Below, piece after piece: positions 23,834 to 27,083 of a stretch of DNA of 31,911 nt (the stretch's first letter is position 1; the number at the start of each line of letters is the position of its first letter). The notes below the pieces were generated by a model. That model had not been told where the DNA came from, did no database searches, and saw only the letters and a program-made list of their open reading frames with translations. Origin of the DNA: Candidatus Colwellbacteria bacterium GWA2_46_10 (GTDB taxonomy: Bacteria; Patescibacteriota; Minisyncoccia; UBA6257; Colwellbacteraceae); NCBI GenBank assembly GCA_001817635.1, contig MHIS01000015.1:1-31911 (forward strand), given 5' to 3'. A program made the position numbers and the translations under genes.

Positions 23834-24502
23834 TTAATATTCGTCAAAGGCATCCTTTCCGCCCTCCTTGGCTTGGGCTAGGAAGAGGACCTCATTTATA
23901 TCCCCCTCGGCTCTCTCTACCCCTCCCTTAAGAGCTCTCACGTACGAGTACGGGCCTCTCTCCCCTATACGCTCCGCAGATCCCCTATCTACCAGGGCAG
24001 ATATATCGTTTCTTAGGGTTCTCTTGCTTACCTCCGGAAAATTCCTTGAGATATCGGCTGGACGGCAACCATTAGGGAATTGCCGTATAAACTCTAGAAT
24101 TTCCGTTTGCCGTTTATCTGGCTTAACGGAAAATTGCCGTTTACTTACCTCTTTTTCCTCTTGCCGTTTAAACGGCAAGGTATTTTTCTGCCGATTAAAG
24201 AGCTTTTCTAGGTTAATTTCTACCTTTTTTTCTGGAAACTCCATAAGTTCCATCATTCCTGCAAGATTACGGAGCTCTCTTATTAAAACCTCACTATTTA
24301 CCCCACTAATCTCCTCTATAGCTTTTCCTAGTTTGATAAGGCGCCTAGCTCTATCAATAGCCGCTTGATCCAGAAACGAGACGATCTCTACCGCCACTGC
24401 CTCCAATTCTTTCCGCAGATAGGAAAATTCAACTTGTGAGGCTACGCGGTAAAGGGCAAAGGCAATATCATGCGCCAATCCGGCAATTTGGTCCCTATCC
24501 AT
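23834..24502 (-). CDS. Helical N-terminal domain plus C-terminal DeoR-like winged HTH protein
   Basis: KRQTEILEFI...ADI...FPEVSKRTLRNDISALVDRG..ERIG wHTH. The ATG at 24502 (MDRDQ) is preferred over 24538. Confidence 0.8.
   Translation of the reverse strand: MDRDQIAGLAHDIAFALYRVASQVEFSYLRKELEAVAVEIVSFLDQAAIDRARRLIKLGKAIEEISGVNSEVLIRELRNLAGMMELMEFPEKKVEINLEKLFNRQKNTLPFKRQEEKEVSKRQFSVKPDKRQTEILEFIRQFPNGCRPADISRNFPEVSKRTLRNDISALVDRGSAERIGERGPYSYVRALKGGVERAEGDINEVLFLAQAKEGGKDAFDEY
24063..24193. repeat. Intragenic array of TTGCCG sites at exact 27-bp period, with inverted copies and a perfect 20-bp palindrome
   Basis: TTGCCG at 24080, 24107, 24134 and 24161, CTGCCG at 24188; CGGCAA at 24063 and 24173; palindrome CTTGCCGTTTAAACGGCAAG at 24160-24179. 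Confidence 0.92.
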
Positions 24503-24507
24503 TGCCG
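24481..24507. promoter_or_regulatory. Inverted repeat (CGGCAAT-N13-ATTGCCG) overlapping the probable wHTH start codon
   Basis: CGGCAAT at 24481-24487 and ATTGCCG at 24501-24507; the CAT (minus-strand ATG) is at 24500-24502. Confidence 0.55.
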
Positions 24508-24639
24508 CAAGATTACCAAAGGGCGGCAGGAAGCACAACTTCCGATATGTGGAAAATCTGTGGAGACATCACACGTCAAACTTGGAATTAACTCTCTGTG
24601 CGGATATTTGAGGCATATGATGCCATCCAGGCCCTCCCA

Positions 24640-24846: not shown

Positions 24847-25440
24847 ATGAGGAATATCCTACTAGTCGACGGCGAGAATTTTAAGAAAAAGATAGAGTCT
24901 GTTTTTGAGGAAGAGGGGGAGGGAGAACCAGATTGGTCATCCTATAATTTTAGAGGATTGATCGACCACGTTCTTAGCGGTATTAATTTGGGTGATAGAG
25001 TCTTTTACATAGCCAGGATAAAGGAACATGAAGAGACTAAAGAAAAATCCCGAGAGCTGATTGAAAAACAGAGAGGGCTAAAAGCCAATTTAATTAATAG
25101 CGGCTTTACTGTAGTGTCTGCGGGCAACGTCAAGGGGTGGCCCTATGGGAAGAAAGGCAGATTGATTTTCAAGGAGAAGGGCGTAGATGTTCGAATAGCA
25201 GTGGATATGATAGTGAGAGCCTGTATAGATGGAGACATAGACACTATTATTTTGGGCAGCTCCGATTCCGACTTACAGCCAGCCGTATCGGAGTTAAATA
25301 AAAGAAGCGTTAGGTCTATATACCTTGGTTTCGAGAGTAACCCGAATAAGGGATTAACTTACACAATGGGCAAGACAATCCTAATTAGGAATAGAGAAGT
25401 CATTGAATTTAAGAGCCAAAACCCCCATAAGTTGTTGTGA
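24847..25440 (+). CDS. NYN domain (LabA/DUF88) putative RNase
   Basis: LVDGEN, EKGVDVRIAVD and GSSDSDLQPAV motifs. Confidence 0.93.
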   Translation: MRNILLVDGENFKKKIESVFEEEGEGEPDWSSYNFRGLIDHVLSGINLGDRVFYIARIKEHEETKEKSRELIEKQRGLKANLINSGFTVVSAGNVKGWPYGKKGRLIFKEKGVDVRIAVDMIVRACIDGDIDTIILGSSDSDLQPAVSELNKRSVRSIYLGFESNPNKGLTYTMGKTILIRNREVIEFKSQNPHKLL

Positions 25441-25455
25441 GACAACAAAACCCCA
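25439..25455 (+). repeat. 17-bp direct repeat, copy 2, part of a minus-strand terminator-like hairpin after gpmI
   Basis: GAGACAACAAAACCCCA; the minus strand reads GCCCC-ATAATCT-GGGGT-TTTGTT. Confidence 0.9.
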
Positions 25456-25508
25456 GATTATGGGGCGGTAGTACTACAATCGAGAAAGACTACCTAAAGA
25501 TCACCGCA

Positions 25509-27083
25509 TTACCTCAGAAGCTGAAGGAGGCTGATTCCCGTCATATCTTCTGGTTTGGGAATCCCCATAAGCTCCAGGATGGTTGGGGCAATATCTGAAA
25601 GTACACCCACGTTGAGCTTCTCTATTTCCACAGCCTGAGCTTCACTCTTTTGCCTCTCGTATCCTGGGGCGACTATGTATATAGGAACGGGGCTTATATT
25701 ATCCCCCAAATCCCTAGATCCGGTTCTCAAGTTCATCATCACTTCGGCATTCCCGTGGGTTGAGGTGATAACTAAGGTTGATCCGGAGGCGAGGACGGCC
25801 TTAGCTATCAACCCTACCTGTTCATCTGCAGCCCTAACCGCTTTAATGGTTGCGTCAAAATTCCCTGTGTGGGCTACTATGTCAGCGTTTGCGAAATCTG
25901 CCAGGATAAAATCATATATCCCCTCATTCAAAGCAGAGAGTATCCTCTCTGTTGCCTCCTTCACTCTCATTTCTGGATGTTCATCTACCTTTGCTTCCTC
26001 TCTTGATGGAATAACTACCCTGTATTCATTGGCGAAGGCTTTGTTGGTCATCCCATTAAAGAGGGTTGTTACATACGCATACTTTTGGGTTTCCGCCACC
26101 CGTAACTGTACCTTGCCTGCGTCAGCGAGAACTTTACCCAAGGGGTTAACTATCCCCTCCTGTGGGAAAGCCGCCGGGATGCCTAGGGTTTTTTCGTATT
26201 CAATCAACGAAAGAAGACTTAAGTCCTCTGGAATAGCGTGTTTTTTAACCTCTCTTTCTCCTAATTCATAGTGGGGCGTGCCTCCGTACGCGGGATCAAC
26301 AAACATCCTGGCCAACTGCCTTTGAGAGTCCTCGCTAAAGTTGAAAAAGATCACCCCGTCTCCCCCCTTAACCGCCAGATCCTTATCAAAAAGGGTTGGG
26401 ACTATAAATTCATCCGTTACACCGGAGGTATAAAGTTCTTTCACAAATTCACTTCTATCTTCTACCCCGTTAACTGGGGCCTTTATGCCTGCGATGGCCT
26501 CGTACGCCCTCAACGTCTTATCCAAATGAAGATCTATATCCATCGCATAGTGCCTTCCAGAAATCGATCCGATCCTCTCTTGAGGCAAATGGGCCATTAG
26601 CCTAGATGCGCTCCCCTGCGCGCTGTCTCTTCCGTCCCCAAAAAGATGCAAAGCAAAGGGCGTTCCCTCATCTCCCGCCATTTTCATCAAGGCCTCCAAA
26701 TGCTCCAGGGCGGAAACGCTCGTCCCCTCACCGATCAATCCCAGGAAGTTTACCTTTCCTCCTTTTTCTTTGGCGCCCCTTATCACCCGGAGAAGCTCTT
26801 CATTTTCAAAAAAACTTCCGTCCTGTATGGTTAGGCTGATGCGGAGGTAATCCTGGTAGAGAACTTTCCCGGCGCCCATAGTTAAATACCCAACCTCAGG
26901 GTTGCCCTCTTCATTCCAAGGGAGTCCGACCGCAATGCCTGAGGCTTGGAGGGTCCCTGCGGGGTATGTAAGCCGAATCTGATTGATGTTTTTGGGCTCC
27001 GCCTGGTATATGGGGTTAGAGGCATCCTTCCTGCCTACCCCCCAACCACTCAAGATCAAAAGCACTACCGTGCGTTTTGCCAT
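25509..27083 (-). CDS. gpmI: 2,3-bisphosphoglycerate-independent phosphoglycerate mutase homolog with a degenerate active site
   Basis: Full-length iPGM architecture (DGRD, AETQKYAYVT, ANADIVAH, HGNAE, D(I)APTIL), but with LSGWG for LDGWG, GNPEVGY for GNSEVGH and STHGN for ADHGN. Confidence 0.88.
   Translation of the reverse strand: MAKRTVVLLILSGWGVGRKDASNPIYQAEPKNINQIRLTYPAGTLQASGIAVGLPWNEEGNPEVGYLTMGAGKVLYQDYLRISLTIQDGSFFENEELLRVIRGAKEKGGKVNFLGLIGEGTSVSALEHLEALMKMAGDEGTPFALHLFGDGRDSAQGSASRLMAHLPQERIGSISGRHYAMDIDLHLDKTLRAYEAIAGIKAPVNGVEDRSEFVKELYTSGVTDEFIVPTLFDKDLAVKGGDGVIFFNFSEDSQRQLARMFVDPAYGGTPHYELGEREVKKHAIPEDLSLLSLIEYEKTLGIPAAFPQEGIVNPLGKVLADAGKVQLRVAETQKYAYVTTLFNGMTNKAFANEYRVVIPSREEAKVDEHPEMRVKEATERILSALNEGIYDFILADFANADIVAHTGNFDATIKAVRAADEQVGLIAKAVLASGSTLVITSTHGNAEVMMNLRTGSRDLGDNISPVPIYIVAPGYERQKSEAQAVEIEKLNVGVLSDIAPTILELMGIPKPEDMTGISLLQLLR

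Follow-up and report, generated by a model that had tools for sequence, protein, structure and literature searches.

A pseudo- or re-purposed phosphoglycerate mutase kept by strong purifying selection in a Candidatus Colwellbacteria genome

Can a core glycolytic enzyme give up its catalytic residues and still be kept by a bacterium whose genome is only about 0.5 Mb in size? The question is raised by a gene of Candidatus Colwellbacteria bacterium GWA2_46_10 that belongs to the family of the cofactor-independent phosphoglycerate mutases (iPGM). It lies in contig MHIS01000015.1 of GenBank assembly GCA_001817635.1, and the window analyzed is the whole stretch of 31,911 nucleotides, which is contig C15 of a genome assembly (G000) of 507 kb in 21 contigs with an estimated completeness of 91%. 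On the minus strand of the window, positions 25509–27083 hold an open reading frame (ORF) of 524 codons plus a stop codon, beginning with ATG, whose product (P0001) was assigned to iPGM by domain match and end-to-end alignment. The evidence presented below leads to the verdict that P0001 is a genuine pseudo-iPGM or has been re-purposed, and that strong purifying selection acts on it. The best explanation as a whole, to which we give a probability of about 0.7, is that P0001 is a vertically inherited iPGM ortholog that has lost the mutase chemistry and is retained for another role, perhaps one in binding.

The iPGM fold and its replaced active site

The frame contains zero internal stops, and the claim of the first-pass annotation of this DNA, that the 524 residues are encoded without a stop or frameshift, holds on the minus strand. 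A Pfam match to Metalloenzyme (E 1e-48) encloses one to the transferase domain iPGM_N (PF06415, E 1e-41), which covers residues 82–297 (26193–26840; all coordinates given within this gene refer to the minus strand). Both the two-domain architecture of Metalloenzyme and iPGM_N and the fold that mark an iPGM are present in P0001. The score against TIGR01307 is 436 bits, with a cut-off of 330.65; against the stricter equivalog model NF003897 it is 352 bits, far under the cut-off of 862. Alignments of P0001 with all solved bacterial iPGMs, including 5VPU, 2IFY and 1EJJ, run from end to end with E values of 1e-80 to 1e-91. An AlphaFold2 model (predicted local distance difference test 89.7, predicted template modeling score 0.78) is confident except for the loop of residues 51–56 and displays an intact two-domain iPGM fold. 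With this model as query, the top matches of Foldseek are all iPGMs, reaching a template modeling score of 0.86–0.90 to the S. aureus enzyme, and a search of the ESM Atlas for look-alikes returned ordinary iPGM clusters only. Public records name proteins of the P0001 type iPGM or mutase, and the nearest homologs that carry a name belong to metagenome-assembled genomes of Candidatus Colwellbacteria.

P0001 has the same length and the same two-domain architecture as GpmI (EC 5.4.2.12; G. stearothermophilus 1EJJ/1O98, S. aureus 4MY4), to which it is 33–35% identical, but its active site is different. Residues are numbered here as in G. stearothermophilus iPGM and were compared one by one in an alignment to 1EJJ. 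The substitutions D12S, S62P, H66Y, H123V, H125A, R191I, R261S, R264S, D444T and H462D were identified in P0001. Two more, H339Y and N398D, were absent from the list of the first-pass annotation and are found throughout the clade of P0001 orthologs, which comprises 15 sequences of 64–100% identity, namely 14 cluster representatives and one further species genome. The motif changes on that list (LSGWG, GNPEVGY, VSA, AMDID, FSEDS, STHGN and DN) all reappear in the alignment to 1EJJ, and the phospho-acceptor serine is indeed replaced by proline through a CCT codon. The elements that had been called retained are also in place, that is, DGRD (R153 and D154), the AETQK lysine (K336), D403, H407 and H445; R185 is kept in addition.

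In the structure of the C. elegans iPGM, metal site 1 consists of Asp/His/His and metal site 2 of Asp/Ser/Asp/His, with the nucleophilic serine on site 2 (PMC5382265). In P0001, one of the four ligands of site 2 (Asp12, Ser62, Asp444, His445) is kept, which is His445, and the nucleophile is gone. Codon 12 (27048–27050) is AGT and places a serine at the ligand Asp12; the clade has Ser in 11/14 and Gly in 3/14 at this position. Codons 62–66 (26886–26900) read P-E-V-G-Y in the alignment and by codon check, with Pro for Ser62 and Tyr for His66, and GNPEVGY therefore stands where an iPGM with its phospho-acceptor has GNSEVGH. Position 62 is Pro in 12/14 of the clade, Ala in 1/14 and Ser in 1/14. 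Codons 442–443 (25755–25760) read T-H, where Asp444 is replaced by Thr (Asp, Glu or Thr in the clade) and His445 is kept. Site 2 has thus lost two to three of its four ligands, Asp12 in the whole clade and Asp444 in part of it, P0001 included. In site 1 (Asp403, His407, His462), two of the three ligands remain in P0001 and the third histidine has become aspartate at codon 461 (25701–25703; Asp 12/14 and Asn 2/14 in the clade). The stretch of codons 396–405 (25869–25898), where Asp403 and His407 are kept, also holds the equivalent of Asn398, which is a clade-invariant Asp. Site 1 might partly survive, as the carboxylate at position 462 could still coordinate metal.

The arginines of the active site reportedly serve in substrate binding. 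Within the phosphoglycerate-binding set, H123 (H123V, 26715–26717), R191 (R191I, 26535–26537), R261 (R261S, 26334–26336) and R264 (R264S, 26325–26327) are replaced, all four inside the iPGM_N domain, and R153, D154 and R185 of the same domain are kept together with K336. Codons 334–337 (26073–26084) read K-Y-A-Y, in which the equivalent of Lys336 is kept and the equivalent of His339 is a Tyr that is invariant in the clade. Lys336 hydrogen-bonds the transferred phosphate (PMC3145672). A clade-specific Thr121-Ser122 adjoins position 123. Some changes are not diagnostic, because H125, T463, R153 and R264 vary also in those relatives within the family that are catalytically intact. The active-site changes are far from what chance would give: among the 147 columns conserved at 90% or more in intact relatives, 111 are unchanged in P0001, and the altered ones include every replaced active-site position. 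Since Ser62, two to three of the four site-2 ligands, four histidines (66, 123, 339 and 462) and three arginines (191, 261 and 264) are lost, the phosphoserine mutase cycle would, by its residues, be impossible for P0001.

Descent of the gene and selection acting on it

The replacements are not peculiar to a single sequence. The clade shares S/G12, P62 (Ala once and Ser once), Y66, I191, S261, S/T264, Y339, D398 and D/N462, and in a graded series of homologs those at 63% identity or less carry the canonical residues. All 15 orthologs are intact, with 523–524 amino acids and no stop or frameshift. The samples behind them differ, the assemblies coming from ENA, Logan, JGI and NCBI, and DNA of the gene is present in several groundwater and soil metagenome runs. 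An exhaustive profile-free search puts the whole clade into one cluster at 50% identity. In a maximum-likelihood tree the 15 orthologs are monophyletic (100/99) and sister to the intact genus g3 (100/100); their stem measures 0.16, and long branches are absent. The gene order SBP_bac_5, iPGM, helix-turn-helix (HTH) protein is identical in the clade and in intact relatives. Because it occupies the same genomic position as in related genera, P0001 is a vertical descendant of the iPGM of the family and no stray paralog.

The intact iPGMs of g3, the sister genus, and of the other genera of the family (P0015–P0121) are 49–63% identical to P0001 and resemble it in synteny and in omega, the ratio of nonsynonymous to synonymous substitution rates. 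Unlike P0001, they keep all seven metal and nucleophile residues as well as His66, His123 and His339, even in six genomes that have no enolase. A 12-residue insertion near residues 267–279 is common to P0001 and part of g3. We toned down the idea that g3 is a half-way intermediate with lost substrate arginines, since Arg153 and Arg264 vary in many intact relatives that contain enolase.

The first-pass annotation proposed that so many losses in an intact frame reflect selection for a non-mutase role, and the substitution data support this proposal. Under a maximum-likelihood codon model (GY+F3X4+G4), the 15 degenerate sequences have an omega of 0.070 and 23 intact relatives one of 0.069. Pairwise ratios of nonsynonymous to synonymous divergence (dN/dS) by the NG86 method are 0.03–0.055 within the clade versus 0.06–0.11 for intact pairs, and lie at 0.03–0.06 for both domains. 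A single amino acid separates P0001 from its nearest relative at a synonymous divergence (dS) of 0.028, and of the 37 strain-level differences listed from co-occurring contigs, 34 are synonymous and 3 nonsynonymous. P0001 is 83, 82 and 72% identical to its counterparts in three genomes of the same genus, versus 72, 71 and 64% for PGK, an active enzyme that is retained universally and served as the yardstick. Signs of neutral decay, such as a dN/dS near 1 or frequent frameshifts, were looked for in the 15 orthologs and neither was seen.

The replacement residues have been preserved along with the remainder of the protein. Across the clade, all four proline codons are used for Pro62 and Tyr66 is invariant; Ser at position 261 is encoded by AGC, AGT or TCA, Tyr at 339 by TAT and TAC in a ratio of 7:7, and Asp at 398 and at 462 by both of its codons. 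While their codons have turned over synonymously, the replacement residues have stayed the same, hence they are themselves constrained. P0001 is not decaying; strong purifying selection acts on the entire protein, with the rebuilt cleft included. It is very probable that the chemistry of iPGM has been lost and that the protein nevertheless functions, as both its domains and its replacement residues are under selection as strong as in active relatives. Homology to an enzyme family with key catalytic residues missing and maintenance by purifying selection are among the marks of a pseudoenzyme, and P0001 displays both.

Lower glycolysis in the genome and in the family

The 25509–27083 ORF is the sole match in the genome to TIGR01307 and to the whole Metalloenzyme family. 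A second canonical gpmI or a gpmA, the presence of which had been considered in the first-pass annotation, was searched for in the genome; no second gpmI and no bona fide gpmA were found. The only candidate for the latter is a generic 186-amino-acid protein of the histidine phosphatase family (His_Phos_1), which falls under all NCBIfam cut-offs for the cofactor-dependent mutase (dPGM) and is nearest to ribazole and phosphoserine phosphatases. His_Phos_1 proteins occur in 49 of 53 genomes of the family regardless of the state of iPGM, and the version of genus g1 is only 26–33% identical to that of g3. These results speak neither for nor against a replacement of iPGM by dPGM. As a separate observation, more than 15 genomes of the family have, 2–13 kb away from iPGM, open frames of about 1150 amino acids with a His_Phos_1 domain at the N-terminus, which would encode an unusual, large fusion protein, for instance at G027:C1:262157-262702, G043:C2:4494-4979 and G009:C2:101170-101685.

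TPI, GAPDH and PGK are present in the genome. Enolase was not found in the 91%-complete assembly, either with a hidden Markov model (HMM) or by tblastn with the enolase of the same genus and the adjoining 2-hydroxyacid dehydrogenase, and neither pyruvate kinase nor enzymes utilizing phosphoenolpyruvate (PEP; PEP-utilizers_C) were found in the genome. The loss of enolase can be located. In genome G002 (contig C3, locus L049) the order is A, B, two more genes, 2-hydroxyacid dehydrogenase, enolase and a GARS-like gene, whereas in the genome studied here (contig C20, locus L050, 4559–8363) the contig is unbroken and only one ORF, of 244 amino acids, separates A′ and B′ from the GARS-like gene. Four genes, including 2-hydroxyacid dehydrogenase and enolase, have been deleted or replaced between conserved flanks; the loss is a real syntenic deletion and no assembly gap. 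The enolase that would consume the 2-phosphoglycerate (2-PG) made by an iPGM is therefore missing. In the candidate phyla radiation, TIM-GAPDH-PGK constitutes a universal glycolytic core, while the distribution of phosphoglycerate mutase, enolase and pyruvate kinase is patchy (Jaffe et al. 2020, PMC7304191), a picture with which this genome agrees. A MurA-type gene of the EPSP_synthase family lies on contig C5 (1237–2457) of the genome, and a MurA without a recognizable route to PEP makes it more pressing to ask what these cells import.

Catalytic death is not strictly tied to the loss of enolase. A sister species of the same genus (G025) has the degenerate iPGM together with a syntenic enolase that carries the usual motifs and is apparently intact, and conversely, six genomes outside the genus have no enolase and keep all seven core iPGM residues. 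Because G025 combines the dead form with enolase, the inactivation preceded the loss of enolase in the lineage of P0001. Retention of iPGM without enolase is common in the family.

Erosion of iPGM extends beyond the clade. Among the nearest 144 cluster representatives, 15, with that of P0001 included, show nonconservative substitutions among the seven positions of the metal ligands and the nucleophile. The other 14 eroded clusters at 50% identity are P0124, P0125, P0127, P0128, P0133, P0135, P0137, P0138, P0142, P0143, P0148, P0171, P0189 and P0268. Their patterns differ and include S62G, S62C, H407R/Q/S, D444S/G and H462N/L. Several of the eroded clusters comprise more than one full-length sequence, and Candidatus Liptonbacteria is the source of one cluster. 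Eight state changes are needed on a FastTree tree, of which at least two are forced by well-supported branches.

Two further arrangements were observed in the family. A second iPGM copy, 35–41% identical, lies directly beside a high-scoring enolase at G016:C20:9753-12567, G037:C2:38134-40935 and G051:C31:9513-12297, with pyruvate kinase present too. This pair resembles an independent module of lower glycolysis, possibly acquired, that coexists with the iPGM typical of the family. In five genomes (G001, G013, G019, G032 and G033) enolase is present and no iPGM homolog was detected with P0001 as query, and parts of the family would then have another source of 2-PG.

Possible functions and the gene neighborhood

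The explanation that we prefer, an inherited iPGM retained for another role, can be elaborated as follows. The loss of the chemistry would date to the ancestor of a single genus of Candidatus Colwellbacteria-like bacteria. A remodeled inter-domain cleft would have been preserved that is less cationic and has two new invariant tyrosines and two gained aspartates. The remnant of site 1, enriched in carboxylates (Asp398, Asp403, His407 and Asp462 with His445), would lie beside Lys336, Arg185 and Arg153, and the cleft could still hold one hard divalent cation. Binding of phosphoglycerate is unlikely for a cleft from which three arginines and four histidines are missing and to which two tyrosines and two aspartates have been added. 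As a tentative suggestion, the protein may bind a metal, a small ligand or a partner without catalysis through the opening and closing of its two domains. Such a binding role may predate the inactivation as a second job of active ancestors, which would explain both the intact iPGMs in genomes without enolase and the loss of catalytic residues without gene loss elsewhere. More speculative still is a hidden mutase-independent function in the iPGMs of the family at large, in which the clamp would sense a ligand or metal or bind a partner, possibly coupled to the HTH neighbor in the manner of a trigger enzyme. This would explain the intact iPGMs without enolase, the repeated catalytic loss and the conservation of the dead copy above that of PGK.

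Several points weigh against the retention of an inactive protein for such a role. The inactivity of P0001 is deduced from its residues. In G025, enolase stands beside the dead iPGM and needs a source of 2-PG, which leaves room for an unrecognized activity there. The grouping of eroded clusters in the FastTree tree may be inflated by long-branch attraction. Pairwise omega is approximate, with dS at or above 1 for most ortholog pairs, although the unsaturated comparisons agree. The gene was not found among the RNA runs listed, which are three tiny SOLiD metatranscriptomes of the same study, and apart from the weak HTH protein the neighboring genes yield no clue to a function.

A young pseudogene on its way to loss, which has acquired no stops yet after lower glycolysis was abandoned, would suit the absence of enolase and pyruvate kinase from the genome and the variability within the clade at positions 12, 62, 123 and 444. 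This is extremely improbable in view of an omega of 0.07, equal to that of intact relatives, the 34:3 ratio among strain variants, 15/15 intact orthologs down to 64% identity, and a conservation above that of PGK; moreover, the gene persists in genomes of about 0.5 Mb, which shed useless DNA. An artefact of assembly, binning or sequencing comes to mind with a metagenome-assembled draft in 21 contigs, but it is equally hard to credit, for the same substitutions recur in independent ENA, Logan, JGI and NCBI assemblies and several groundwater and soil runs, and the neighboring genes are syntenic with relatives. That P0001 is still a phosphoglycerate mutase despite its substitutions would agree with the TIGR01307 cut-off that it passes, with its iPGM name in public records, with the need of MurA for PEP in a genome without a recognizable source of it, and with the enolase kept by G025. 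We consider this very unlikely. A proline at the nucleophile position cannot accept a phosphoryl group; Asp12 and His462 have been lost, as have three substrate arginines; the G. stearothermophilus S62A mutant was crystallized with the substrate still bound, according to the title of PDB entry 1O99; the deletion of enolase leaves the product without use; and P0001 reaches 352 bits against the 862 required by NF003897.

A new enzyme is a less remote alternative, yet it too is improbable. Here the surviving metal site (Asp403, His407 and Asp462, with His445 and Lys336), in conjunction with water or a relocated nucleophile, would act on a new and less anionic substrate, for example in a reaction of the phosphatase, phosphodiesterase or isomerase type unrelated to phosphoglycerate. 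Half of the catalytic center is invariant or almost invariant, as are the phosphate-binding Lys336, Arg185 and Arg153; the constraint on the replaced positions fits a site that was rebuilt rather than abandoned, and the clade-specific Thr121-Ser122 lies beside position 123. Migrated catalytic residues occur in some so-called pseudoenzymes, as noted in a review (PMC10211241). However, no alternative nucleophile is invariant near the site, where position 12 is Ser or Gly and position 444 is Asp, Glu or Thr, and the neighborhood offers no candidate substrate pathway. To our knowledge, all characterized enzymes of the alkaline phosphatase superfamily use a metal-activated Ser, Thr or formylglycine where P0001 has Pro.

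Retention of an iPGM ortholog for a noncatalytic role would have parallels in known systems. Like P0001, pseudoenzymes in general conserve the fold and lack the catalytic residues (reviewed in PMC5106787, PMC10211241). In the histidine phosphatase family of dPGM, members with non-mutase jobs provide a precedent (Rigden 2003, cited in PMC2964296), but unlike P0001 they keep the catalytic histidine and are still enzymes. In B. subtilis, enolase and PfkA scaffold a degradosome-like network and pgm deletions suppress dnaE mutants (PMC8152036); these cases show that enzymes of three-carbon glycolysis can take on second, nonmetabolic roles, but unlike P0001 the proteins concerned are still active enzymes. 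Pseudoenzymes are well known as a category, and full-text literature searches yielded no account of an iPGM-family protein that is catalytically dead.

P0001 offers a clean natural case in which a core glycolytic enzyme has become a conserved non-mutase protein in a genome of about 0.5 Mb. Useless genes go quickly from such a genome, and a protein of this kind marks a function of importance to these uncultivated, host-dependent bacteria. It is also a trap for annotation, as records and HMM surveys say mutase and metabolic reconstructions would wrongly count the step as present. With at least 14 other eroded 50%-identity clusters among the nearest relatives, the phenomenon may recur and merits a systematic survey.

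The gene that adjoins iPGM across the family (for example in loci L007, L009, L012, L036, L040 and L042) encodes a protein of about 222–234 amino acids with a weak C-terminal DeoR-like HTH (Pfam E 0.089), and lies at 23834–24538 on the minus strand of the window. In g1, g3 and G028 it is on the same strand, 17–30 nt 3′ of iPGM, and in more distant genera the two genes are head to head. The other neighbors are genes for NYN, DUF5674-like, holin_4_2-like membrane, SecG, SBP_bac_5 and RNase J proteins. As they are mostly on the opposite strand and their synteny matches that of intact relatives, the neighborhood was set aside as a functional clue; RNase J was likewise rejected as an operon partner, being about 3 kb off and on the opposite strand. 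A scan found no sigma-70-like promoter, the sigma-70 consensus being uninformative for this phylum. A terminator-like GC hairpin with a T-run, which is a consensus match only, occupies 25450–25466 on the minus strand, 43 nt past the stop codon of the iPGM-like gene. The NYN-domain gene (24847–25440, plus strand) lies between the iPGM-like and HTH genes here and in locus L035; in L043 it adjoins the iPGM-like gene on the opposite side, and other relatives show both genes with no NYN gene there. Its position between the two is probably the result of an insertion.

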